Counted from the stretch's first letter, positions 7 to 43,296 are shown. The stretch is DNA of 64,000 bases from Minisyncoccota bacterium (GCA_039927695.1 JBDSUM010000017.1:1631-65630), one strand, 5' to 3'. A program made the numbers and translations. Notes: generated from the letters alone by a model not told the origin.

Positions 7-606
7 CTATCCGACAGTACCTGTTGTAACTTCTCCCGCTCGCTTGTAACTAGCGAAAATGACACCGTTTGAAGTGACTAAGCTGAACGTTAGTTCAAAA
101 GCAGCTGCAATGGTGCCCTCACCAAACAATCGCTTACCCGTGCCAAGGGTGATTGGAAACGTCATCAATCGCAGCTCGTCGACTAGGTCATGTTTGAATA
201 ATGTCTGCGCTAGGTTGCCGCTGCCAATAACTTGAATATCAGAACCTTCTGAATTCTTGAGATTCTTGATGTCATCAACGTTTCTAAGGAATACTGAGTT
301 CTGCCACTCTGACTTCTCCAAAGAAGAAGTCATTACATATTTAGTAACGTCATTAATACCGGGCCACATGTCTGCATGCTCGGGCCAATATGCAGCGAAG
401 ATATCAAAAGTTTTCCTTCCCAAAAGAAGGTCTGCTGATTTCATCCATTTTTGCATCAACTCATTACCCTCTTCGTCTGCTTCGTGAAAGTATGGGGCTG
501 TCCAGCCACCGTACTTGAAATCGCTCGATGTATCTTCCTCAGGTCCACCTGGCGCCTGCATTACTCCATCTAAGGTAATAAACTCTTGGACGATTATTTT
601 TCTCAT
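7..606 (-). CDS. dihydrofolate reductase family protein (RibD C-terminal domain-like reductase)
   Basis: 199-aa ORF. N-terminal motif IVQEFITLDGVMQAPGG is typical of RibD_C/DHFR-like reductases. Composition is protein-like. Confidence 0.6.
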   Translation of the reverse strand: MRKIIVQEFITLDGVMQAPGGPEEDTSSDFKYGGWTAPYFHEADEEGNELMQKWMKSADLLLGRKTFDIFAAYWPEHADMWPGINDVTKYVMTSSLEKSEWQNSVFLRNVDDIKNLKNSEGSDIQVIGSGNLAQTLFKHDLVDELRLMTFPITLGTGKRLFGEGTIAAAFELTFSLVTSNGVIFASYKRAGEVTTGTVG

Positions 607-664
607 ATAATTATTGTAACAATGATTGCAGTGTTACCCATAGTTCGGAGCTGTTCCAAGTTGG

Positions 665-692
665 TTTGCAGAGTGGGATGATGGAACCTTTC
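665..692. repeat. conserved intergenic repeat copy F (TTTGCAGAGTGGGATGATGGAACCTTTC)
   Basis: Matches a ~30-bp motif that recurs 6 times in the first 3.7 kb. This is the most divergent copy. Confidence 0.45.
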
Positions 693-738
693 TGCGGCAT
701 ATGATAGGTTCTGTCTAGAACGTGTGTGGAGGAAAAGC

Positions 739-972
739 ATGATGAAGGCCAGAATGTATCGAACCCGGGGTATACCTCTCGAGAGTATTCCGAATGATGA
801 GCAGCGAAGTACGGTTATTGGCGAGCATCTTTTGGCCCTATTGGAAGAAATTGAAGACGGACTGACTGATCAGCTATCTCATTCAATATGTATGCTTTCC
901 CCTAATTATGCTCTTATAAGCATAACGTATATACGGGTGGATGAACCTGGACATTTTATTGCTTCGAGATAG
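739..972 (+). CDS. hypothetical protein (77 aa)
   Basis: ORF-track start at 724 is GTG. ATG at 739 has GGAGG 6 nt upstream. No recognisable domain. Confidence 0.35.
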   Translation: MMKARMYRTRGIPLESIPNDEQRSTVIGEHLLALLEEIEDGLTDQLSHSICMLSPNYALISITYIRVDEPGHFIASR

Positions 973-978
973 ATCCAG

Positions 979-1311
979 ATGAACGCCCCAGACAATTCGC
1001 TCTGGGGTTTTGCTTTGCATATTAATGATTGTTATATTTTAAGCAGTAGTTATATGTGGATTTCAACGACCCGTGGACTCGGGGAACACAACGTTAACCA
1101 CCTCCTACAAAAAAATGAGTCCAATTATCAGCTCATACATTTTATTATGAATCAGCAAGAACTACACAATCCTGCTATCGACGAAGATGCTCGTTATGGA
1201 TTAGCAATGATTAAGTGGCACGGTTGGATGTCTCCTGTTGGAGTGGGGATTTTCATGCTCTGTCTCGGAGGATTCATCTATCTTCTTCATTTGTCAGAAA
1301 TCATCGGATAA
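979..1311 (+). CDS. hypothetical protein with C-terminal hydrophobic segment
   Basis: 110-aa ORF starting 7 nt after the upstream stop, suggesting a two-gene cassette. The C-terminal stretch GVGIFMLCLGGFIYLL looks like a transmembrane helix. Confidence 0.35.
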   Translation: MNAPDNSLWGFALHINDCYILSSSYMWISTTRGLGEHNVNHLLQKNESNYQLIHFIMNQQELHNPAIDEDARYGLAMIKWHGWMSPVGVGIFMLCLGGFIYLLHLSEIIG

Positions 1312-1436
1312 TTAAGATCCTTCGGAGGTTTCTAGAATGTGGAACAAAAAATCACTAAAGCTTAGTGATTTTTTGTTAGTACTTCTAGTTATTTAGAATG
1401 TATTGGTTCTGTTATGTATGAATAAAATCTATTGCC

Positions 1437-1466
1437 CGCGATCAGGGGCGATGTTGGAACCTTTTT
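1437..1466. repeat. conserved intergenic repeat copy A
   Basis: CGCGATCAGGGGCGATGTTGGAACCTTTTT, immediately followed by TTGACA. Confidence 0.5.
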
Positions 1467-1553
1467 GACAGATCAGCTTTGCCCTGGCATGCTCATCTAG
1501 GCCTATGCAGTGCAGGGCTACACTAGGCATTGCCTAAACAAGGAGTACCTTCG

Positions 1554-1895
1554 ATGAGAAAGAGGATTGCCTTTTCCATTCTCAAATTTGTAGGCGTAAC
1601 CGCCGAAGAGTTTATCGCTCTCAAGAACCTATTAACGGATGAAGGCCGCGTAATGAAGAAGCTTCCGGTAGTTCGCTCAAGTATCGTCGACAGAATCTTT
1701 GCGACGATTCAGTCTGCCGTGTGGGATCAAGAGCACGGAACATTCACAGTCGAAGTGAAAGTGAATGATTTTGCGTTCGCGCGTGAACCAACAAAGAATC
1801 CTGGCGACAAACCGCACTTCAAGTACGATACGGATGATCCGACACCACGGAGTCTCTTGGTCAGAGTTCTCGACGTCTTGAATCGCTACAAATAA
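1554..1895 (+). CDS. hypothetical protein (113 aa)
   Basis: ATG at 1554 is preceded by AGGAG 8 nt upstream. The ORF-track start at 1530 is TTG. Confidence 0.45.
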   Translation: MRKRIAFSILKFVGVTAEEFIALKNLLTDEGRVMKKLPVVRSSIVDRIFATIQSAVWDQEHGTFTVEVKVNDFAFAREPTKNPGDKPHFKYDTDDPTPRSLLVRVLDVLNRYK

Positions 1896-1943
1896 GCAAT
1901 CTGTACTGGCCACTGGAGTATATTCCAGTGGCCATAAGTCTTA

Positions 1944-1976
1944 TTGCTGGCAGAGTGGGACAACGTTGGAACCTTT
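1944..1976. repeat. conserved intergenic repeat copy B (TTGCTGGCAGAGTGGGACAACGTTGGAACCTTT)
   Basis: 28/28 identical to copy D. Contains the palindromic core CAACGTTG. Confidence 0.6.
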
Positions 1977-2547
1977 ATTTTTCTGTCTTTAATAAATGAG
2001 GATAGTATCGGCTTGTAATATCTTTGACGTATTCTTCAAGCGGCATCATGCCTAATGCGGCACGCCTTTCATTTACGTGTTCTTCGTCTTCAATTGGTAC
2101 TGGCTCATATGCAACAACATTCATGTTTGTTTCTGCATCTCTCGTTTCCTGCATTTGGGTACCGTATCGCTGTTTTTGTTTTATTTTTACCCATACGCGA
2201 TCTTCGAGGTATGCAGCATCTATTTTGTTAACTTCCCCGTCGGGCTGTTCCCTCATAAGGTCTAAACACTGTTGTTGAAAGATAGGGTCATGATCTGCAT
2301 GTTGCACTAACAACCATGCGGCGCGGGAAGCCGTTTCCCCTACTTTTGAGACAGTGGGCCATCCAATTTCTGTGATTACTCTTTTCATAGCTTCAGTATT
2401 TTGAAGATCTATGTTCTCGTCCCACGTATCTTCTGAGTCATTTAAGTCCTTTTCACGCATGTCTTGGTCGACTTTAACTCGTTCAAGAATTTCCTTTGTT
2501 ATCTCAGGATATTGTCCGTATTCGGGATTTTCATTTGAGCCATGCAT
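1975..2547 (-). CDS. hypothetical acidic protein (~190 aa)
   Basis: Protein-like composition. GGAG lies 4 nt upstream of the second ATG. A TATAAT box sits just upstream on the minus strand. Confidence 0.45.
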   Translation of the reverse strand: MHGSNENPEYGQYPEITKEILERVKVDQDMREKDLNDSEDTWDENIDLQNTEAMKRVITEIGWPTVSKVGETASRAAWLLVQHADHDPIFQQQCLDLMREQPDGEVNKIDAAYLEDRVWVKIKQKQRYGTQMQETRDAETNMNVVAYEPVPIEDEEHVNERRAALGMMPLEEYVKDITSRYYPHLLKTEK

Positions 2548-2575
2548 TTTCTCCATATGTAAATTATAGCAATAT

Positions 2576-2610
2576 TTGCTGGCGTACTGGGACGATGTTG
2601 GAACTTTTTT
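2576..2610. repeat. conserved intergenic repeat copy C
   Basis: TTGCTGGCGTACTGGGACGATGTTGGAACTTTTTT. Confidence 0.55.
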
Positions 2611-2663
2611 ACATAAAGAAAGCCTGGCTGGATTAGGTATCGCAGCCAGACTCTCACATCACC

Positions 2664-2849
2664 CTAGGTGTCCAGAGGAGTAGTTCGCATTTCCTCCATA
2701 ACCTTTATGGCGAAATCCAGATTTTCCTTGTCATGTGCTCCTCTCGACGGATCAGGGTTAGTATCGGATGCCCCGAAGCAGGGGCTGGTTCGGCGATCAG
2801 GTCCGCGCAATATACTGTCCCTGATCTCGTCTCTAGTCGTCTTAGGCAT
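2664..2849 (-). CDS. small hypothetical protein (61 aa)
   Basis: ATG at 2849 has AAGGAG 7 nt upstream. The ORF-track start at 2945 is TTG and lies inside repeat copy D. Confidence 0.4.
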   Translation of the reverse strand: MPKTTRDEIRDSILRGPDRRTSPCFGASDTNPDPSRGAHDKENLDFAIKVMEEMRTTPLDT

Positions 2850-2926
2850 GGCAGTCGCTCCTTTCTGCTGAAACTGTATCAGGATATGTGCAGGGAGCAA
2901 AGGTAGTCTAAAACAATCTTGATAGC

Positions 2927-2960
2927 TTTTGGCAGAGTGGGACAACGTTGGAACCTTTTT
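2927..2960. repeat. conserved intergenic repeat copy D
   Basis: TTTTGGCAGAGTGGGACAACGTTGGAACCTTTTT. A partial direct repeat CAGAGTGGAC follows 24 nt downstream. Confidence 0.6.
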
Positions 2961-2972
2961 CTCTAATCAGAG

Positions 2973-3001
2973 TGGACAGTACAAATATATTATGCTATAG
3001 T
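2973..3001 (+). promoter_or_regulatory. sigma70-like promoter (TGGACA-17-TATAGT)
   Basis: Spacing and hexamers were read directly. Lies ~30 nt upstream of an AGGAG RBS and the ATG at 3033. Confidence 0.4.
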
Positions 3002-3032
3002 CTATATTATTCCTCTTTGCTAGGAGCTAGCC

Positions 3033-3554
3033 ATGTCATTCATTTACCATGCGGTTCCTCGCAATATGACCGGAACTGTTCTTTACCCCCTCAACGAGCT
3101 TCGTACCGTCAGCGAAACTGCCCATGCGACACATGCGAGCAAATACGAAGGACGTGAGCATTTAACTGAGGTGCGCATTCCAACGTTGGGAAACTGTCTG
3201 TGGAATGACGTACTTTTCTTCATTGCTACTCCCCCCTCTGTTTTCTGGCATGCGTATGAGTCTGCTGGATTCGACAAGCTACGACTCCAGCGCCATTTTC
3301 AGTTTGATGTAACGACTCTCGACCAATCGAAGCTCGCTGTCCTCACGAAAATGGAAATGAATCGCCCTGACGTATATGAGCCGTTCGACCCATCTCGCAT
3401 GGACGAATACGCGACTATTCCTCAGGAGACCTATGACTATTGGGCAGAGGAGCTGGCTTCGGGAAATACCCGACCCATGCTCTATATGCACATTCCACAC
3501 ATCCTTTACCGTGGTTCGCTCGACACATCGGGTGTCCCTGTTGTAGAGGCCTAA
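3033..3554 (+). CDS. hypothetical protein (173 aa)
   Basis: AGGAG 6 nt upstream. Protein-like composition. Followed by a rho-independent terminator. Confidence 0.5.
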   Translation: MSFIYHAVPRNMTGTVLYPLNELRTVSETAHATHASKYEGREHLTEVRIPTLGNCLWNDVLFFIATPPSVFWHAYESAGFDKLRLQRHFQFDVTTLDQSKLAVLTKMEMNRPDVYEPFDPSRMDEYATIPQETYDYWAEELASGNTRPMLYMHIPHILYRGSLDTSGVPVVEA

Positions 3555-3561
3555 ACAATGA

Positions 3562-3600
3562 CCGCAGGCTTGAGATTTTCTCAGCCTGCGGTTTTTATTT
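3562..3600 (+). terminator. rho-independent terminator
   Basis: CCGCAGGCTTGAGA/TCTCAGCCTGCGG stem followed by TTTTTATTT. Confidence 0.6.
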
Positions 3601-3613
3601 GCATACTATAGTT

Positions 3614-3640
3614 AGCTGGCAGAGTAGGGTTGGAACTTTT
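3614..3640. repeat. conserved intergenic repeat copy E
   Basis: AGCTGGCAGAGTAGGGTTGGAACTTTT, a shortened variant upstream of yebC. Confidence 0.5.
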
Positions 3641-3672
3641 GGGTCGAGTGCTGATTTTGGTATACTTGTTTT

Positions 3673-4239
3673 ATGTCAGGACACAATAAATGGTCGCAGA
3701 TTAAGCAGCAGAAGGGCGCGACTGACGCTGCAAAGAGTCGCGCGTTTTCTAAGTTTTCACGACTCATAAGTATTGAGGCTAAAAAAGCTGCTGGAAATAT
3801 GAGTTCTCCATCTCTTTTAGCTGCTATTGGTCGGGCAAAAGCTATCAACATGCCCAAAGACAGTATTGAGCGCGCTGTTGCGAAAGGCTCAAGTAAGGAT
3901 GCTGGCGAACTCGACACTGTGAGTTATGAATTCTATGGGCCAGGCGGATGCGCAATAATTGTGAATGCACTTACAGACAATCGTAATCGCACGACACAAG
4001 AAATTAAGCATCTTATTTCTAAGAATGGTTTTGAGCTCGGTGTTCCTGGGAGCGCAGCCTGGGCATTTTCAAAATCAGGTGATGGCACATATACACCGAA
4101 TGCCCCACTTATGGAGGTGACAGGTGACGATCAGGAAAAACTTGAAATGATGCTCACTCTTTTAGATGAACACGATGATGTGCAAGATGTTTTTAGTAAT
4201 GCGACTGGATACGAGTCTTCGCGTGAAGACCCTGAATAA
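3673..4239 (+). CDS. yebC: YebC/PmpR family DNA-binding transcriptional regulator (short form)
   Basis: MSGHNKWSQIKQQKG and PKDSIERAVAKG motifs. Adjacent to ruvC as in classical yebC-ruvC synteny. Only 188 aa. Confidence 0.8.
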   Translation: MSGHNKWSQIKQQKGATDAAKSRAFSKFSRLISIEAKKAAGNMSSPSLLAAIGRAKAINMPKDSIERAVAKGSSKDAGELDTVSYEFYGPGGCAIIVNALTDNRNRTTQEIKHLISKNGFELGVPGSAAWAFSKSGDGTYTPNAPLMEVTGDDQEKLEMMLTLLDEHDDVQDVFSNATGYESSREDPE

Positions 4240-4241
4240 CT

Positions 4242-4718
4242 ATGCGCGTACTTGGCATAGACCCTGGGTTCGATAGACTAGGTCTTGCCATAGTTGAAGG
4301 CGACCCGAGTAAGCCAGTAGTGGTGTGGAGTGATTGCGTATTGCCGGCAAAAGGCGCACCTGCGGCGCGCCTTGCTGATGTATACACTGCAATAATAAAG
4401 GCTCTGACAGAGTTTACGCCTGACAAAATCTCCATTGAAACTCTTTTCTTTAGTACCAATAAGAAGACAGCTTTAGCTGTTGCCGAAGCGCGCGGAGCAA
4501 TACTTGCAGCTGCAGGTGCAAGGAATGTGCTCGTGCAAGAATACAGTCCCGGTCAGGTTAAACTCGCGGTGACCGGTCATGGTGCAGCAAACAAAGCAGC
4601 CATAGCACGCATGATCCCCCATCTCGTGACCCTCGATACTCGAAAGCGTTTGGACGATGAGCTCGACGCTATTGCAGTAGCTATTGCTGGACTTGCTGAC
4701 CGGAGCAACACCCAATAA
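4242..4718 (+). CDS. ruvC: crossover junction endodeoxyribonuclease RuvC
   Basis: MRVLGIDPG start and RNase H-like fold motifs. 158 aa. Confidence 0.9.
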   Translation: MRVLGIDPGFDRLGLAIVEGDPSKPVVVWSDCVLPAKGAPAARLADVYTAIIKALTEFTPDKISIETLFFSTNKKTALAVAEARGAILAAAGARNVLVQEYSPGQVKLAVTGHGAANKAAIARMIPHLVTLDTRKRLDDELDAIAVAIAGLADRSNTQ

Positions 4719-8887: not shown

Positions 8888-9988
8888 TTACTGATTCATT
8901 GGCATCACGAGATAGAGAAGAGTGTTGTCCCCTACTCCACGAATAACGAGCGGGCGACCAATACCTGCAGATGAAAGTGTGAGGTTTTCAGTCGTGATGA
9001 GTGGAATTGGAGCTGAGAGATAACGATGATTGAAAGAAAGCTCAATAGACTCACCCGTAACCGATGCTGGTACACCCTCAGATGATTCTCCGATGTCGCT
9101 ATTACGTGCTGAGAATACGACACGCTTTTCTTCTCCAACAAATCCTATACGAACTTTCTGGAATGAGTCAGAGAACACTGATGTTCGCTTGAGTGCAGAT
9201 TCAAAATCTTTACGTAGGATGGTCGCCTCAGAAACAAAAGCTTTAGGAATTATCTGTGCGTAGTCAGGATAGGGGACGGTAACAAGGCGCGTAGTAACAA
9301 TGCCGTTTGGCCATGAAAACGCGCACTGATGTTCATCTACCAACACTTCTACATCAGTGTCGGGTAGTGTTTGAACGATATCGATAGCATTCTTTGCGGG
9401 TATAAGAATAGAAAATGGAGAAATAGTTCCGGCAAGTGACATTCTCTTCTCTGCAAGACGGAATGAGTCAGTTGCAACAGCCTTCACAACACCACCTTCA
9501 GCAGACAAAAGCACGCTACCAAGTTCAGGACGTACCGTTGATGGTGAAGCACATGGTGCGACAGCGAGTACCAATGTCTTAAGTGCACTACCAGGTAGGG
9601 TAAATTTAGACGCTGACGCCTCTGGGAATGGGAGTGTGGGGAAATCCTCGTATGAGAGTGTTTTAAGCTGACTGCGACCTGCTGGCGAGCTTATGACGAC
9701 CGTCTCACCACCGTGCTCAAGCGTAATAGTTCCTGTTCCTGAGAAAGATGAGGTGATTTCACGAAGAGTGGTTGCTGGGAGAGCTACAACACCAGGTTCT
9801 TTAATTGTTCCTGCTACTTTAAAATCAATCCCTGTTTCAAGATTTGTTGCACGTAGTTTAATTCCATCATCCCCTGCAACGATTGCAATACCTGCAAGAA
9901 CAGGAAGAGTTGCTGATCGTCTCTCAGCAAACCGTGCCACTCGCGCAACCGCCTCTGAGAATTCTTTTTTTTCTAAAGTTATGAGCAT
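8888..9988 (-). CDS. dnaN: DNA polymerase III subunit beta (sliding clamp)
   Basis: 366 aa with the three-domain clamp pattern. Sits immediately downstream of dnaA. Confidence 0.9.
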   Translation of the reverse strand: MLITLEKKEFSEAVARVARFAERRSATLPVLAGIAIVAGDDGIKLRATNLETGIDFKVAGTIKEPGVVALPATTLREITSSFSGTGTITLEHGGETVVISSPAGRSQLKTLSYEDFPTLPFPEASASKFTLPGSALKTLVLAVAPCASPSTVRPELGSVLLSAEGGVVKAVATDSFRLAEKRMSLAGTISPFSILIPAKNAIDIVQTLPDTDVEVLVDEHQCAFSWPNGIVTTRLVTVPYPDYAQIIPKAFVSEATILRKDFESALKRTSVFSDSFQKVRIGFVGEEKRVVFSARNSDIGESSEGVPASVTGESIELSFNHRYLSAPIPLITTENLTLSSAGIGRPLVIRGVGDNTLLYLVMPMNQ

Positions 9989-10227
9989 ACTCTTATTATT
10001 AGGGGTGTTGATACTGGGGAAAGAGGTATGTGACTAGTATATACGCTCTGTGTGGGTTGGACTACGGCTCGCTATCGTGGGTACTAGGTAGTGTTTGGTG
10101 GGGGATAACTTGAACCCTTTAAATTCGATGGGGATAACTACCTCCGATATTGCTAGTTTCTACCAGGCTTTCCCCATCGCTATCCCCTGTTTCCTACAGG
10201 ATGTCCCCACCATTATCCCTCTTGTGC
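9989..10227. other. candidate oriC segment (dnaA-dnaN spacer with DnaA-box-like repeats)
   Basis: Several GGGGATAAC / TTATCCC / GGGGATAGC motifs that resemble TTATCCACA DnaA boxes. Sits in the classical dnaA-dnaN spacer. Confidence 0.4.
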
Positions 10228-11574
10228 CTAGACTAAGAGCGTGCGTATATCTGAAATTTCCTTTGCGAGCTCCGCGTCCTCAGCAACTTCTCTTTTAACC
10301 TTTTCGCACGAGTGAATAACCGTAGTGTGGTCGCGACCGCCAAGCTTATTACCAATTGTTGGGTACGAAACACTAAAGTCTTCGCGCAGAATGTACATAA
10401 TTACCTGACGAGGACGCACCACCTCCCTTCTACGAGTCTTTTCATAGATACTTTCTTCCTCAATGCCATAGAACTCGGCCACTTTCGATACCACGTGCTT
10501 CACGGAGATGGTTTTTGTTGGTCGTGAGAAGGAGCGAAGCGATTGGCGTACTTCCGCAAGATCTGGTGGAGCACCCTTTACCTGTGTGTGGCAGACAATA
10601 CTATTTATGACCCCTTCAAGCTCACGAATAGAACCTGCTACTGATGAAGCAATGTATTCAACAGATTCATTTGCGAGCTCCACACCATTGGCAGCTAGCT
10701 TCTTTCGTACGATAGCAACACGAGACTCATTGTCGGGTTCCCCAATATCAACGGTCATACCACTTGCGAGGCGTCCACGGAGGCGATCAGCGATGTCAGG
10801 GATGGCAACAGGCGCGCGATCAGATGAGAACAGAATCTGCTTGTTGTTGTCGTACAGGTAATTAAACAAATGGAAGAGCTCTTCGCTAATCTTGTCCTTC
10901 TTCGAGAGGAACTGCACGTCGTCCATAATCAAAAGATCATACTGGCGATACTTTTCCTTGAATCGATTAGCCGTACCTGACTGGAGAGAGTCCGTGAAGT
11001 CAGTACCAAACTTTTCACTCGTTAAGTAAAAGACTTTGCGTGTTGGATGGAGCTTCTTGTACTGGTTTCCAATAGCTTGGATGAGGTGTGTCTTCCCTCT
11101 TCCGGTGTCCCCGTAAATAAATAAGGGGTTATAGGTGATTCCGGGGCGAGAGAGAGCTGCTTGGGCTGCATTAAAGGCTAATTCGTTGAATGAACCAACG
11201 ACAAACGAGTCAAAGGTATAGCGAGGATTTAGATTATCGCTCTTATTTATATAGAAATCATCGAGTGGAAGCTCAGGAGTTGGTACAGGACGGCGGTTCT
11301 CTTTTGGTTTGCGTGTCACGTCCTTCACGATCATGTATTCAATGTTGCGATAGTCATGGGAAACACCACGCAAGATCTTTAGGAGAAGCATATTGAACTT
11401 CTTTATATACCAGTCTTTGAAAAAGAGACTTGGAACGCCGATAAAAACGATTCCATCTTCTATCTTTACGATTGAACTTTCACGAAACCATGTATTGAAA
11501 TTAGCGGGAGAAATAGAAAGTTCTATCTGCGTGAGCACGTATTCCCAAAGTTCATGTGGATCAGAACGATTCAT
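10228..11574 (-). CDS. dnaA: chromosomal replication initiator DnaA
   Basis: Walker [11 protein letters not shown] and Walker [11 protein letters not shown]-terminal DnaA-box binding helix [12 protein letters not shown]. Confidence 0.95.
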
Positions 11575-11676
11575 AGTATGCCTAGTATACGTGTCTTTCC
11601 CAGAGTGGAAAGCTGGCGGCTAGAAGCCGCATTTGTTGCACTTCTCCAGTCAACCTGGTACTATCCTGTGGACAAC

Positions 11677-11838
11677 ATGCCTAAGCGAACTTACCAACCA
11701 AAGAAGCGAAAGCGAGCCCGAACTCACGGGTTCCGCGCTCGTTCAGCGACCCCTGGTGGTCGTCGTGTACTCCTCGCGCGTCGCCGTAAGGGTCGCACAA
11801 ACCTCTCCGTCTCTCCAACCAAGACGTTGAGCAAGTAA
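11677..11838 (+). CDS. rpmH: 50S ribosomal protein L34
   Basis: [22 protein letters not shown]. The ORF-track start at 11554 is too long; the true ATG is at 11677. Confidence 0.9.
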
Positions 11839-11850
11839 ATACGCCATTAT

Positions 11851-12180
11851 ATGCTGCCACGGCCCCTCAGGCTTACCAGGCAGGGTTTCTCTAATACTCG
11901 AGGCCTAAAACGCGTGCACAGCACGCATTTTTCGCTTTCATACGGGCACGTCGAGGTCGCAGGTCTTGGTGGCTCAGGAGTCATCGTCCCCAAGAAAGCC
12001 GTTAAGGGTTCTGTGGCTCGTCACTTGCTCAAGCGTCGCGTACGCGCCGTCCTACTTCCCTACAGCAACCCTTCACGCATCTTCATCGTTTCCGCACGGG
12101 CAAAAGCCGATACTCTTTCATATCAAGAACTCGAAGGTGAGCTTTCCGCGCTCATTGGGTCTATAATAAAGAACACCTAA
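11851..12180 (+). CDS. rnpA: ribonuclease P protein component
   Basis: 109-aa basic protein directly after rpmH. RLTRQGFSN motif. Confidence 0.85.
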   Translation: MLPRPLRLTRQGFSNTRGLKRVHSTHFSLSYGHVEVAGLGGSGVIVPKKAVKGSVARHLLKRRVRAVLLPYSNPSRIFIVSARAKADTLSYQELEGELSALIGSIIKNT

Positions 12181-12183
12181 GGC

Positions 12184-12930
12184 ATGATCTCTTCTCTTTT
12201 TCATTCGGTACTCTACGTTCCTATCTATAACCTCCTCATTTTCTTTACAGGAATAGTGCCTGGCGGAGATGTTGGTATTGCTGTCATTATCGTGACCGTT
12301 ATCGTGAAGATTATTACCGCGCCCCTTTCTATTAGCGCGGCAAAGACTCAGCGACGCATGAAGCACGTCGAGCCTCAGATGAAGGCAATCAAGGAAAAGT
12401 ATAAGGACGACAAGGCAAAGCAGGCCACGGAAACGATGGCACTCTATAAAAACAACAGCATTAAGCCGTTTTCGAGCATTTTCACCATGCTCCTTCAGCT
12501 CCCTGTCATTATCGCTCTCTACCTTGTCTTCCGTCGTGAACAGTTACTTCACGCGAATCTCGCTCTTGTATATACCTTTGTTCCGCTCCCAACGAACATC
12601 TCCCCCCTCTTCCTAGGGCTTTTTGCTACCACTGGACATAGCATCACACTCGCAGTAATAGCGGCTGCAACACAATTCCTCCAAGCACGCCTCACTATTC
12701 CCCTTCCCCCAAAGCCTGCTAAGGGAAGCACACCGTCTTCAGGCGAGGAGTTTGCACGAGCGCTTGCCCTGCAGTCACGTCTACTCCTCCCTATACTTAT
12801 CGGTGTCTTCGCTTATACCACTGGTGCAATCGCACTGTACTTCATCACAAGCAGTGTTGTAGCTCTTCTCCAAGAGTTCTACCTTCGCCGCACGACGCAT
12901 GTGCCTGCGACGGAGCCGATTGTTATCTAA
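12184..12930 (+). CDS. yidC: membrane protein insertase YidC (short type)
   Basis: Multi-TM 60 kDa-IMP-like core with KHVEPQMKAIKEKYKDD. Follows rnpA. Confidence 0.85.
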   Translation: MISSLFHSVLYVPIYNLLIFFTGIVPGGDVGIAVIIVTVIVKIITAPLSISAAKTQRRMKHVEPQMKAIKEKYKDDKAKQATETMALYKNNSIKPFSSIFTMLLQLPVIIALYLVFRREQLLHANLALVYTFVPLPTNISPLFLGLFATTGHSITLAVIAAATQFLQARLTIPLPPKPAKGSTPSSGEEFARALALQSRLLLPILIGVFAYTTGAIALYFITSSVVALLQEFYLRRTTHVPATEPIVI

Positions 12931-37217: not shown

Positions 37218-37302
37218 GGTACCACACCTTGATTAATCGCGCAAGTGTCTCCTAGTACTCTACTCCCTGGTCACAAATATTGTACGAACCAGCGCGATGC
37301 TA

Positions 37303-38221
37303 CAATTTAGGTATGAATGCAGAGCAGATCAAGCGCCAATTTCTTGAATATACAGAAATTGAGAGAGGTCGAGCGGTAAAAACGATCCAAAACTACGATC
37401 ATTACCTCACGCGTTTCTTTATGCAGATGAAAATTGTCACTATTAACGACATTACTGAAGATAAAGTGCGTGAATTTAGGCTTTGGCTCAATAGACAGCC
37501 CGGAACTAACAATGATTCGATGAAACGTCGAACTCAAAACTATTATTTGATTGCATTACGTGCGTTCCTTAAGTACTTACGTAAACAAGGAATAGATGGA
37601 ATGTCACCGGAGCGTATTGAACTCGCCAAAGTTCCCGAGCGTCACCTTGATCTCATCTCCCCTATTGAATTGGATCGACTCTTAGCGTCAGCTGATGGTA
37701 CTGACGAGCGAGGATTGCGCGACAAAGCTATACTCGAACTCCTTTTCTCTACTGGGCTACGTGTTTCTGAACTTTGTTCGCTTGATAATGATCTAGATTT
37801 AACGCGAGACAGCTTCCCTATTCGCGGTAAGGGCGAGAAAGTACGTGTTGTTTTTCTTTCTGATGAAGCGAAAGCAGCAGTGAGAGCTTATTTAAAAGCT
37901 CGAAAGGATATGCACGAAGCATTGTTTGTGAATGTTCCGCGAAGTCGCAATGTAAAAGCAACACCTGGTCGCCTAACTCCCCGCTCTATTGAGTTGATGA
38001 TTAAAATATATGCGGCTAAAGCGGGCATCACTAAAAAAGTGACCCCACACGTTATGAGGCACTCATTTGCAACAGACTTGTTAAATAATGGTGCAGATAT
38101 TCGCTCTGTGCAGCAATTGCTTGGACACGCATCAATTACTACCACGCAGATTTACACTCACGTTACCGACGCTCACTTGGCGAATGTGCATAAACAGTTT
38201 CACGGGCGTCGACGAAACTAG
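37303..38221 (+). CDS. tyrosine recombinase XerC/XerD family
   Basis: C-terminal HVMRHSFATDLLNNGADIRSVQQLLGH...Y catalytic region. ATG at 37303; the ORF-track start at 37280 is TTG. Confidence 0.8.
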
Positions 38222-41922: not shown

Positions 41923-41994
41923 GCCCCTGTAGTGAAATGGATATCACAACAGTCTTCGGAACTGTCGTTCCAGGTTCGAATCCTGGCGGGGGCA
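41923..41994 (+). tRNA. tRNA-Arg (anticodon TCG)
   Basis: Cloverleaf folded by hand: acceptor GCCCCTG/CGGGGGC, D GTGA/TCAC, anticodon stem ACAGT/ACTGT with loop CTTCGGA, T CCAGG-TTCGAAT-CCTGG. No encoded CCA. Confidence 0.8.
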
Positions 41995-42035
41995 CTAGAA
42001 AAAAGGGAAGTACCTGTGCTATAGTTCTTCCCGTA

Positions 42036-42109
42036 GCGGATATGGTTTAGTGGTAAAACACGTCCTTGCCAAGGACGAATCGGGAGTTCGATTCTCCCTA
42101 TCCGCACCA
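42036..42109 (+). tRNA. tRNA-Gly (anticodon GCC), CCA encoded
   Basis: Acceptor GCGGATA/TATCCGC. Anticodon stem CGTCC/GGACG with loop TTGCCAA. T-arm GGGAG-TTCGATT-CTCCC. Confidence 0.8.
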
Positions 42110-42116
42110 GTCAGAT

Positions 42117-42137
42117 AAAAGCCCTATAGGGGCTTTT
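42117..42137 (+). terminator. terminator hairpin after the tRNA pair
   Basis: AAAAGCCCTATAGGGGCTTTT. Confidence 0.5.
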
Positions 42138-42150
42138 ATCGTTGTGGATC

Positions 42151-42669
42151 CTACTTTTTGTCTCTCTTCTTAATACTGATACCGATACCTGCATTTTCAG
42201 TAACGTAGACAATAGCATTGCTAAGTAATGCAGGGTCATCTTTAAACTGACCGATTCCAATATTACAGTTTGAACACAGGAGGCCTCGAACGACCATGGT
42301 CTTATGACAATGATCTAGGACTGGTCTCTTCATTGGAACGCGGCATATGCCGCACAAGCCATTCTGTCGTTCAAATAACTCTGCATATAGCTGTCTATAA
42401 GGTCCTGCAGTACCAAACTGCTGAGTCAGCTTTTTATCTTCTAGACATTGGACGCAACAAGTTCTATTTTCAGCAGCAGGTCTTTTGGTACAACTTGGAC
42501 ATATCCCGCGAGCTTTAAAATCTGCCTTTCTTTTTCGTTGGTATTCTAAAAAATGTTGTCTTTGCGCCTCTGTTCTCCAGTTATTTGCCATGTATTGAAT
42601 ATACCACAGTCTGAGTTTGTGGAAATGCAAACAGGGGAAAAGTCTGTTAGTAGTGGGGATAACGGACAT
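42151..42669 (-). CDS. endonuclease VII (phage-type Holliday junction resolvase, HNH-like) domain protein
   Basis: GLCGICRVPM...VLDHCHKTMVVRGLLCSNCNIGIGQF matches the Endonuclease_7 signature. The true start may be the internal Met at 42591. Confidence 0.65.
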   Translation of the reverse strand: MSVIPTTNRLFPCLHFHKLRLWYIQYMANNWRTEAQRQHFLEYQRKRKADFKARGICPSCTKRPAAENRTCCVQCLEDKKLTQQFGTAGPYRQLYAELFERQNGLCGICRVPMKRPVLDHCHKTMVVRGLLCSNCNIGIGQFKDDPALLSNAIVYVTENAGIGISIKKRDKK

Positions 42670-42747
42670 ACGTCTTAGAAAGAATTCAGAAGAATTTTAG
42701 AATTATCAACTGATTCCTTCAGCAACTAAGCCATATTATTTAAGGTC

Positions 42748-43143
42748 ATGAATCTTAGTAAATCTTCACGTAAAGACATTGGAAACTTAGGAGAACGTGT
42801 AGCGGCAGAATACCTGCGCAGGCTTGGCTTCTCAATAATAGGAAGGAATATTGCTTTTAAAACTGGTGAGCTCGATGTCATGGCTCTAAACGAAAATACA
42901 CTGCATATTGTAGAAGTTAAGACTGTCGTATGTGTAGAATTTCCAAATTTAGAATCTCAAGACAGCGGGTACGATCCCGCATGGAATCTGCATCCATATA
43001 AGATACGCAAAGTTCGTAGGACAGCAGAGTGGTATGTGGCAGATAAAAACTGGGAAGGGGAGTGGCAAATTGATGGCGCTCTCGTGTGGCTACGTCAGAG
43101 CGATGGTATGGCTCGAGTCCGCTATTACCCGCAGATTGTATAA
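42748..43143 (+). CDS. YraN (UPF0102) family endonuclease
   Basis: GNLGERVAAEYLRRLGFSII...ELDVMA...IVEVKT motifs. Confidence 0.7.
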   Translation: MNLSKSSRKDIGNLGERVAAEYLRRLGFSIIGRNIAFKTGELDVMALNENTLHIVEVKTVVCVEFPNLESQDSGYDPAWNLHPYKIRKVRRTAEWYVADKNWEGEWQIDGALVWLRQSDGMARVRYYPQIV

Positions 43144-43222
43144 ACACATAGACCTTATACGAAAACCTGGTAGGATGAGCAAAACAGGGGACTCAGAGCT
43201 ATCTGCAGTCCACTCTGTCATT

Positions 43223-43296
43223 CGGGGTGTCGTATACCGGTAGTACGACTGCTTTGGGAGCAGTTAGACGGGGTTCAATTCCCCGCACCCCGACCA
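43223..43296 (+). tRNA. tRNA-Pro (anticodon TGG), CCA encoded
   Basis: Acceptor CGGGGTG/CACCCCG. Anticodon stem ACTGC/GCAGT with loop TTTGGGA (G37). T-arm CGGGG-TTCAATT-CCCCG. Confidence 0.75.

Follow-up and report, generated by a model that had tools for sequence, protein, structure and literature searches.

In integrons, gene cassettes are promoterless and read from Pc, and they are separated by attC sites, imperfect palindromes of 55-141 bp which fold as single-stranded hairpins; one special site, attI, lies at the end of the array. Cis-mobilisable elements (CIMEs) are integrase-less segments bounded by att sites, which can be mobilised in trans and occur as occasional decay products beside an integrative and conjugative element (ICE). 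Xer-dependent modules, i.e., the integrative mobile elements exploiting Xer (IMEX) at dif and the pdif modules of Acinetobacter plasmids, are small, use short sites and rely on a housekeeping recombinase encoded elsewhere. In Neisseria, the minimal mobile elements and the dRS3/Neisseria intergenic mosaic element (NIME) arrays depend on flanking-gene homology or on inverted 20-bp repeats. The tycheposon islands of Prochlorococcus are tRNA-adjacent stacks of elements separated by partial tRNAs, in which newcomers displace older elements; each unit spans several kb and encodes a tyrosine recombinase, and about 40 nt of the host tRNA make up each repeat (10.1101/2020.12.28.424599). Here, we describe an array of five small gene cassettes separated by a repeat derived from tRNA-Gln, found in a 64,000-nucleotide stretch of DNA (JBDSUM010000017.1:1631-65630, the window) and first noticed in a reading of that sequence alone, referred to below as the original prediction. 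The organism, deposited as Minisyncoccota bacterium (GCA_039927695.1), is a Parcubacteria/Paceibacteria bacterium.

The window array is one of a large family of polar cassette arrays, found mainly in Paceibacteria/Parcubacteria and in at least about 80 species. These arrays function like an integron or a tRNA-anchored island, yet lack defining features of each. As in integrons, most cassettes hold a single gene and measure about 0.4-0.8 kb, the sites are strictly co-oriented, one end is special (attI there, the tRNA-Gln end here), and the cargo is hypervariable and mostly of unknown function, with cassettes shared and reordered between arrays. Unlike attC, however, the site is 33 bp long, conserved in sequence, non-palindromic, unfolded and taken from the 3' end of a tRNA. 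Further, the cassettes are self-expressed in both directions, there is neither an IntI nor an adjacent integrase, and one small genome can hold several arrays, at tRNA-Gln and at pseudo-sites. With tycheposons the arrays share the tRNA-adjacent stacking, the probable displacement of older units by newcomers, partial tRNA copies at the anchors and the occurrence in streamlined genomes without classical mobile elements. Here, however, the units are integrase-less cassettes of about 600 bp, and the repeat is a chimeric sequence kept across species, of which only the first 4-7 nt are host-like.

The other systems are more distant in at least one respect each. The segments resemble CIMEs in being integrase-less and bounded by att-type sites, but here the arrays are widespread and of regular build, and neither an ICE nor a partner with an integrase was seen. 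An Xer-dependent module would fit an unlinked enzyme and the single Xer-type gene described below. However, the 33-bp logo lacks a dyad of two arms flanking a 6-8 bp spacer, the array is located between ruvB and yebC, 5-7 kb from dnaN/dnaA and not at the terminus, and the repeats are all direct while pdif sites alternate in orientation. The Neisseria elements, which belong to naturally competent bacteria, likewise exchange cassettes at fixed chromosomal points and have short conserved repeats between the units, but are without a polar anchor derived from a tRNA. Our literature search turned up no account of the motif or of arrays like these, most subscription journals being outside that search.

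In the window, the motif core GTTGGAACYTTT, allowing at most one mismatch, occurs six times in 64 kb where 0.78 are expected, and all six occurrences are in the array. The original prediction had placed six repeats at 665-3614, all facing the same way with genes in both directions between them, and this is what we find: six copies (A-F, see Table 1) on the plus strand at 663-3640, with open reading frames (ORFs) on both strands. The start-to-start spacings of A-F (772, 507, 632, 351 and 687 bp) also agree with the predicted unit sizes of 350-780 bp. A single shared repeat of about 30 bp, on the other hand, does not describe the copies, as there is more than one length class. The repeat consists of a left half GGCAGAGTRGG and a right half GTTGGAAC, between which F lacks 5 nt and A about 3 nt, so that A and F are shorter, and both A and B are degenerate in their left parts. 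A pair of copies identical over 28 of 28 nt and containing CAACGTTG does exist. It consists, however, of the third and fifth copies (1944 and 2927) and not of those first named B and D: the 28-mer at 1949-1976 in copy C is identical to 2931-2958 in copy E, with 0 such matches expected.

To survey the family, one genome per species was scanned with the 21-mer TGGGAYRAYGTTGGAACYTTT, which gave at least 117 eight-kb blocks; all counts of copies, pairs, intervals, cargo and anchors given below are among the matches listed of this survey. The matches belong to at least 86 assembly prefixes. The titles given are nearly always Patescibacteria, Parcubacteria, Paceibacterota or one of the subgroups Kaiser-, Nomura-, Wolfe-, Lloyd-, Adler- and Moraniibacteria, with one Levyibacteriota. 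Other automated labels are attached to some blocks, and two or three seem to be chance matches (L034, L040 and perhaps L098; loci are cited by L numbers throughout). A profile built from the listed copies finds 300 copies at E<0.01 among the listed loci. The same logo, tttaTTGCTGGCaGTCTGGGACGATGTTGGAACCTTTtT, results from the 138 copies outside the retrieval pattern, and about 30 of its positions have 1.3-2 bits. The consensus site of the family is 33 bp long, TTGCTGGCnGTCTGGGACGATGTTGGAACYTTT, and several genomes contain three to five separate arrays.

The architecture is regular throughout the family. All 179 pairs of neighbouring repeats less than 3 kb apart are co-oriented and 0 are inverted, and the start-to-start spacing has a median of 609 bp with an interquartile range of 448-756 bp. 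Exactly one ORF of at least 50 amino acids (aa) is present in 129 of the 179 intervals (72%), and in 74% of the single-ORF cassettes the ORF runs opposite to the motif as given in the original prediction. When all in-array ORFs are compared with each other, 186 of 220 are singletons. The cargo that can be recognised by sequence inspection, with no profile search, includes ribonucleotide reductase, HAD, SDR and aldo-keto reductases, as well as a Mrr-like nuclease, a Fic/RhuM-like protein and a ParB-like protein. The left side of a repeat is typically occupied by a terminator or by a minus-strand gene's extended -10, the right side by a promoter or by a convergent gene's terminator, and most repeats adjoin terminator hairpins. 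Therefore, each unit appears to be its own transcription unit.

The window variant of the repeat, CAGAGTGGGACAACG, recurs in L042 and L138. In the form CAGAGTGGGACAACGTTGG with the CAACGTTG palindrome it is found at 6365-6396 of L042, an additional array of the closest relative, from the same metagenome-assembled genome as L002, and at 357-378 of L138, while most species carry CAGTCTGGGACGATGTTGG in its place. L138 is a soil contig of 1.1 kb, the one match of a metagenome scan with the window variant, and is another array fragment. The variants are apparently specific to lineages, a pattern pointing to concerted evolution or to a protein that evolves along with the site.

According to the original prediction, a motif spread over the genome at unrelated genes would point to a generic promoter or a repetitive extragenic palindrome (REP). 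Many genomes do contain the motif, but always as the boundaries of arrays. REPs, bacterial interspersed mosaic elements and miniature inverted-repeat transposable elements were set aside, since all copies in the 64 kb fall within a single stretch of 3 kb, are non-palindromic and never occur in opposite orientation. A known RNA family was also discarded: for the window motif, no Rfam model gave a match with E of 1 or less, and in ten array loci only tRNAs were found at gathering thresholds. A BLAST search of the 33-mer against phage and plasmid collections gave nothing but one chance match in Shinella. The scan of IMG/VR with a 22-mer gave seven matches (L007-L013), all in one coding stretch of a high-GC phage gene. 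These were rejected as DNA cytosine methyltransferase-like coding sequence (...VWDDVGTFDG...), i.e., one chance match multiplied by homology, which shows that exact-pattern counts can mislead.

The repeat derives from the 3' end of tRNA-Gln, a point missed by the original prediction. Read as its reverse complement, AAAGGTTCCAACATCGTCCCAGACTGCCAGCAA, the repeat is similar to the 3' end of tRNA-Gln, CTAGGTTCGATCCCTAGTCTCCCAGCCA, and the left part of the 33-bp site is the reverse complement of the last tRNA-Gln nucleotides. In local alignments to the repeat, tRNA-Gln 3' ends score best, mostly 16-26 (two score 13-14) compared with 8-18 for other tRNAs. The tRNAs located within 1.5 kb of an array are strongly polar, as 32 have their 3' end facing the array, one is on the same side in the other orientation and five are at the other end. 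Most of these 32 are tRNA-Gln. In all, 21 loci have a tRNA-Gln anchor, and the gene is the anchor in 16 of the 76 loci with enough flank. Many arrays without a tRNA-Gln gene end instead in a 23-24-nt fragment of its 3' end, GCTGGCAGACTAGGGATCGAACC, on a constant side and strand and one cassette past the last long repeat. Of the 76 loci with enough flank, 38 have a tRNA-Gln gene or fragment no more than 1.5 kb from the right end, compared with 1 of 84 at the left end and 0 on the other strand. A direct link between fragment and gene is seen in C7867-008, where array L056 ends at a real tRNA-Gln and array L024, on the same contig, ends in an exact 24/24 copy of the 3' end of that tRNA.

No tRNA is located within 38 kb of the window array, which has just the 24-nt fragment F. 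Copy F has three mismatches to the fragment consensus GCTGGCAGACTAGGGATCGAAC, with 0 such matches expected, and its reverse complement is identical to a tRNA-Gln 3' end (acceptor strand and T-arm) at 18 of 22 positions without gaps. Fragments like F are also found about 40 nt upstream of yebC in L084, L129 and, in a short form, L002. Over their 23-24 nt, F and the other anchor fragments differ from tRNA-Gln 3' ends at 0-5 positions. The long repeats inside the arrays are chimeric, with an acceptor-like left part followed by a right part which is 5 nt longer and is not T-arm. The anchor fragments, in turn, look like hybrids: they start with GCTGGC as in the repeat (GCTGGG in the tRNA) and continue with AGAC-TAGGGATCGAACC as in the tRNA. 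In addition, the left-most copies across the family have degenerate left parts.

The left end of the repeat follows the tRNA of its own host. The identity between the left 10 nt of the repeats and the tRNA-Gln of the same genome is 0.646, compared with 0.568 after shuffling, and 0 of 5000 permutations reach this value, a count which overstates the independence of the loci because they are phylogenetically related. At the strongest co-varying position the agreement is 0.93 with the own tRNA-Gln compared with 0.54. The co-variation is confined to the first 4-7 nt of the repeat; examples are GCTA in L078 and L073, GCTCGGG in L080 and GTTA in L101. A tRNA primer-binding site, with the left part complementary to the 3' end of tRNA-Gln, was considered and rejected, as the complementarity is imperfect at fixed positions and one position matches the own tRNA in only 10% of the comparisons; no reverse transcriptase was noticed among the ORFs read or screened.

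Some tRNA loci deserve separate mention. A cluster of tRNA-Arg(tcg), tRNA-Gly(gcc) and tRNA-Pro(tgg) at 41923-43296 of the window has no repeat. In C7867-007 and C7867-008 (L023 and L097), an array with a tRNA-Gln fragment abuts the 3' end of the tRNA-Pro of the same cluster, and the hot spot is therefore empty here. Longer partial tRNA-Gln copies, of about 45 nt and reaching to the anticodon arm, are located directly downstream of the intact gene in L100 (5981-6050) and L017 (6285-6545, both oriented), those of L017 among runs of N. They could be scars of a classical anticodon-loop integrase event or assembly artefacts.

The repeats delimit single-gene modules whose content differs between related genomes, which bears out the cassette array of the original prediction. 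In related genomes the flanks are common at 70-93% identity while the cassettes are different, as seen in the pairs L015/L075, L033/L106, L023/L097, L110/L123, L076/L089, L036/L106, L046/L068 and L002/window. The homology between L015 and L075 begins exactly at the tRNA-Gln 3' end, and in six further pairs (78-93% identity) the flank or cassette homology ends at a repeat. Whole cassettes, from repeat to repeat, are also shared by different arrays, at 79% identity in L015/L112 and 88% in L023/L116.

The clearest example is the 173-aa gene of the window, whose homologues (69-87% aa identity) are repeat-bounded in arrays at four other chromosomal sites (L131-L137). In L132-134 (85%) the order is repeat, 173-aa homologue, tRNA-Gln fragment and alaS. 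In L131 (87%) the cassette adjoins rplI in a three-cassette array which ends in a degenerate fragment. L135 (69%), in the context of a T2SSF gene, is a six-cassette array with the homologue beside a DUF6624 cassette, in an order unlike that of the window, and L136/137 (73%) is a decayed array beside a dCMP deaminase gene. At the nucleotide level, the homology runs from the promoter (about 2971) via the gene and its terminator into GCTGGCAG of the next repeat (about 3636).

The cassettes at the ruvB-yebC site itself also turn over. L002 has one different cassette and L129, L084 and L102 have others, while L003, with a degenerate anchor only, and L004, with no motif, have none. The gene order in relatives is thus variable and not static, static order being the observation that the original prediction named as speaking against a cassette array. 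The ruvB-yebC interval varies even beyond its repeat-bounded part when L001 (4432-6934) is compared with L002, L003 and L004. A pair of genes, one of 137 aa and one Cyt-b5, is common to three genomes, and RibD_C, DUF6069, a 151-aa gene, TrmB and a radical-SAM gene are variably present without recognisable repeats. The wider interval may be an older, decayed array.

The original prediction saw no integrase in the window, which does contain one tyrosine recombinase gene. It is of Xer type and located at 37280-38221 on the plus strand, 34 kb from the array. Its protein passes only the XerA-type model NF040815 (241 against a cut-off of 220) and is below the XerC/XerD equivalog cut-offs. It scores 132 bits against a cut-off of 265 for the integron-integrase model TIGR02249, 77 against 435 for NF011946, and 51-55 bits with the invertase models against cut-offs of about 221-222; an Rci-type invertase was not found. 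No tyrosine recombinase is located within 10 kb upstream. The recombinase screen covered 119 array-bearing sequences, i.e., the 117 scan blocks, L002 and the first 12 kb of the window. Among the 1242 ORFs of this screen, the only tyrosine recombinase is an ortholog of the Xer-type gene of the window, and 0 serine recombinases were found, so that the proposed check for a linked enzyme gave none at the arrays screened. In L035, the Xer ortholog (77% identity, oriented 2859-3806) ends exactly where a two-cassette array starts. At the corresponding position beside the Xer gene of the window there is a 171-aa ORF and no repeat, and the adjacency in L035 is therefore taken as a coincidence. A weak "resolvase" match was dismissed, as it reads as a YchF-type GTPase. 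The families which recur near arrays, none of them at a fixed distance, were also dismissed as housekeeping proteins (RuvB and other AAA+, Dus, UvrA, PyrG, FtsX, a flavoprotein and GIY-YIG/NUDIX).

We suggest that an enzyme encoded at another place in the genome inserts the self-expressed cassettes, using site-specific recombination at an att site that resembles tRNA-Gln, and consider this somewhat more probable than all alternatives together. Recombination is proposed since an anchor at one end, fragments of hybrid make-up, first nucleotides specific to the host, degenerate copies at the far end and homology that breaks at the site are what many rounds of attP x attB recombination at a tRNA 3' end classically leave behind. 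The data show the family with its architecture, the origin of the site in tRNA-Gln, the co-variation, and the modularity and turnover of the cassettes; recombination, its crossover point, the sequence of insertions and the enzyme are inferred. A long site carried by a cassette would recombine with the tRNA-Gln end, or with a pseudo-site such as F, in a conservative and site-specific reaction. The crossover would take place inside the acceptor-stem part, at about nucleotides 5-8 of GCTGGCAGTC. New cassettes would join beside the anchor, and the 173-aa gene would then be the newest in the window; older repeats such as A and B would be pushed outward and decay, and excision would occur between neighbouring repeat copies. 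The enzyme would act in trans. The sole candidate in view, and only by default, is the single Xer-type recombinase.

Several observations weigh against recombination of this kind. No array-linked recombinase was found among the 1242 ORFs, which were searched using phmmer with two query proteins, a XerD and a resolvase, and using a motif regular expression. No within-species variation is seen, as the 3-4 public contigs of the species have the same arrangement, and neither an excised circle nor an empty-site polymorphism was found. The site is asymmetric and without the dyad symmetry of simple tyrosine-recombinase core sites. A crossover in the acceptor stem predicts that the C of the repeat replaces a G in tRNA-Gln, and the intact tRNAs lack this change; either only compatible cassettes persist there, or the crossover is further 3'. 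Copies of the 173-aa cassette lack conservation over about 17 nt on the right side of the repeat, and the left cassette boundary is thus not sharply defined. The quality of the repeats falls with the distance from the anchor only as a trend, from 39 to 28 bits (within-array p=0.15). Finally, half of the loci with enough right flank have no anchor in a single-consensus search, which would miss other tRNA-Gln types.

There is a substantial chance that the arrays are an independent gene-capture system of the Patescibacteria. On this reading, Paceibacteria and their relatives could own a gene-capture platform that arose independently of integrons and works by an unlinked Xer-type enzyme or an unrecognised one, with cassettes moving in and out both at tRNA-Gln and at pseudo-sites, the yebC promoter being one. 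If this is true, the platform would be a main route of accessory-gene flux in reduced genomes with few known mobile elements. How accessory genes are acquired in Patescibacteria is poorly understood because their genomes are tiny and host-dependent and have few recognised mobile elements. As the conserved 33-bp boundary site is easily searched and occurs in over 80 species, hundreds of cassettes of this flexible gene pool can be retrieved with a single pattern. The site is also a defined DNA substrate for finding the enzyme and could serve as a short, programmable landing site. If the enzyme is the housekeeping Xer-type protein or a new one, the arrays would be a second, independently evolved integron-like capture system. 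For annotation, the arrays account for strain-specific blocks of genes beside tRNA-Gln, yebC, alaS and other core genes.

The strongest alternative is that the 33-bp block is portable homology, by which RecA swaps, adds or deletes cassettes in homologous recombination after DNA uptake. This mode has been proposed for the minimal mobile elements of Neisseria, Patescibacteria are thought to depend on DNA uptake, and 33 bp is close to the shortest length that homologous recombination can use. It would agree with the lack of a linked recombinase, with a site that is long and nearly identical between copies, and with lineage-specific variants (CAGAGTGGGACAACG in L042 and L138) such as gene conversion would give. 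However, it leaves unexplained why a tRNA-Gln 3' end or a hybrid fragment is found at just one of the two ends, why no more than the first 4-7 nt follow the host tRNA, and why one sequence has been maintained in more than 80 species. Insertion at a single copy would further need a circular intermediate or two flanking copies. We therefore regard portable homology as unlikely, although worth keeping in mind.

It could also be speculated that the repeats are fossil att sites, i.e., scars of larger integrase-bearing elements once present at tRNA-Gln, and that the cassettes are immobile. Stacked elements, partial tRNAs and degenerate remnants are indeed seen in tycheposon islands (10.1101/2020.12.28.424599). 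The longer partial tRNA-Gln copies beside the real gene in L017 and L100 fit such an origin, as do the degenerate arrays (L136 and copies A and B of the window). Scars, however, should not be so strongly conserved, with 1.3-2 bits over about 30 positions even in the unselected copies, nor delimit units of such regular size (interquartile range 448-756 bp) with mostly one ORF. Integrase remnants number 0 among the 1242 ORFs, and the same cassette is repeat-bounded at different loci. Fossil sites are thus a distinctly improbable explanation.

A regulatory site is less probable still. The repeat would here be an operator or promoter of a Patescibacteria-wide regulator, or an alternative-sigma promoter with GGAAC as its -35. 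In a subtype of the plus-strand cassettes, represented by copy A, L002 and at least 15 other loci, TTGGAA is indeed located 18 nt upstream of TGnTAGGTT and a ribosome-binding site, and copy F is just upstream of the yebC promoter. However, the repeats are co-oriented whatever the direction of the genes, 74% of the single-ORF cassettes being on the other strand, and the anchoring at tRNA-Gln and the co-variation with it have no regulatory rationale. Copy C is between convergent genes, the spacing between repeat and promoter hexamer is not fixed (0 to about 21 nt on one side, 3-11 nt on the opposite side), and the homology between genomes breaks at the site, three points which also count against the shared operator offered in the original prediction. 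Its claim that three repeats sit near sigma70-like promoters holds for one strong site in a generic promoter scan (2973-3001, after E). The total of sigma70-like sites in that scan is not above chance, and the other promoter calls are readings of the sequence. Among these, an extended -10, TGCTATAAT, adjoins repeat D, in line with the predicted repeat abutting the -10 of the 1975-2547 gene. A sigma-54 or extracytoplasmic-function-type promoter, direct repeats of a response regulator, a DNA uptake sequence and CRISPR were dropped on anatomy.

A true integron, or an integrase-less attC cluster (CALIN), is hardly credible in spite of the co-oriented sites, single-ORF cassettes of about 600 bp and hypervariable content: there is no IntI, which a CALIN could do without; the site is unfolded (-0.8 to -5.1 kcal/mol in 61-nt single-stranded DNA windows of copies C-F on both strands, with |z|<2 in 7 of 8 folds and the z=-2.10 of copy D on the plus strand driven by flanking hairpins and not by the motif); it is the sequence rather than a structure that is conserved, with no inverted repeat within the motif; and the cassettes have their own promoters and terminators and run in both directions. 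The core reads GTTGGAA and not GTTRRRY in 5 of the 6 window copies and in the family consensus, the purine at position 7 confirming the earlier remark that the motif does not match the attC core. The integron-like label of the original prediction, in the proper sense, accordingly fails on IntI, the attC fold and the promoterless cassettes, and the shufflon-like one on the inverted repeats that it needs, with 179 of 179 pairs direct and no Rci-type invertase.

The features of the window array and its flanks are collected in Table 1.

Table 1. Repeats, cassettes and flanking genes of the window array (positions counted from the first nucleotide of the window).
Feature	Position	Strand	Remarks
Left flank, RibD_C (DHFR-like reductase) gene	7-606	-	outside array; Pfam PF01872, E=2.7e-22
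Repeat A	663-691	+	left-most (distal) copy; left part degenerate; ~3 nt missing
Cassette 1	692-1431	+	ORF 739-972 (77 aa); ORF 979-1311 (110 aa, start uncertain)
Repeat B	1432-1464	+	left part degenerate; nhmmer 21 bits
Cassette 2	1465-1943	+	ORF 1554-1895 (113 aa) and palindromic hairpin 1907-1934; no Pfam match
Repeat C	1944-1976	+	between convergent genes; overlaps DUF6624 stop codon; nhmmer 38 bits
Cassette 3	1975-2575	-	DUF6624 gene 1975-2547/2556; Pfam PF20329, E=2.2e-17
Repeat D	2576-2608	+	general CGATG type; nhmmer 44 bits
Cassette 4	2609-2925	-	possible ORF 2664-2849 (61 aa), coding status uncertain; absent from public annotation
Repeat E	2926-2958	+	same as C over 28 nt
Cassette 5	2959-3612	+	anchor-adjacent; 173-aa gene 3033-3554; terminator 3553-3600
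Repeat F	3613-3640	+	short anchor copy; directly upstream of yebC promoter -35 region
Right flank, yebC	3673-4239	+	conserved core gene; synteny in L002-L004
Right flank, ruvC	4242-4718	+	conserved core gene; synteny in L002-L004

Both flanks are as originally claimed, with the RibD_C reductase to the left and yebC-ruvC to the right, and there is no repeat upstream of the RibD_C gene in L001. The replication-origin region is close by, with dnaN (8888-9988) and dnaA (10228-11574), both on the minus strand, and rnpA and yidC in 8888-12930. Neither ORF of cassette 1 has a Pfam match. This cassette contains a terminator-like hairpin at 985-1008 and a second hairpin at 1332-1388. The first, GCCCCAGA...TCTGGGGT followed by a run of T, is right at the annotated start of the 110-aa ORF, so that the start is probably mis-called (ATG 1148 is possible) or cassette 1 is two units. 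Homologues of the DUF6624 gene of cassette 3 are found in the arrays of L135 and L087. Cassette 4 has, on our reading of the sequence, a terminator-like hairpin at about 2628-2655, and the 173-aa gene of cassette 5 has a strong promoter with an extended -10, TGGACA-17-TATAGT, at 2973-3001. Terminator-like hairpins are also found ahead of repeats B, C and F.

At the right flank, the extended -10 of yebC, TGGTATACT (3658-3666), ends 6 nt ahead of the ATG at 3673, and the yebC mRNA is therefore probably leaderless. The sequence TTTTGGTATACT at yebC is kept in L002, L003 and L004.

The right half of repeat A forms, together with TGATAGGTT (705-713), a conserved promoter module. The module is about 45 nt long (683-720 in the window) and reads TTGGAAC-CTTT-CTGCrrCATATGaTAGGTTCTGTCTAGA, followed by a ribosome-binding site. 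At least 15 loci have it ahead of plus-strand cassette genes that are unrelated to each other, e.g., at 7149-7190 of L002, and promoter modules of the copy-A type are also found downstream of repeats in L002, L023, L056, L086, L106, L112, L130 and others. From its layout, the module looks like a portable promoter, in which the right half of the repeat would provide the -35 and TGnTAGGTT the extended -10.

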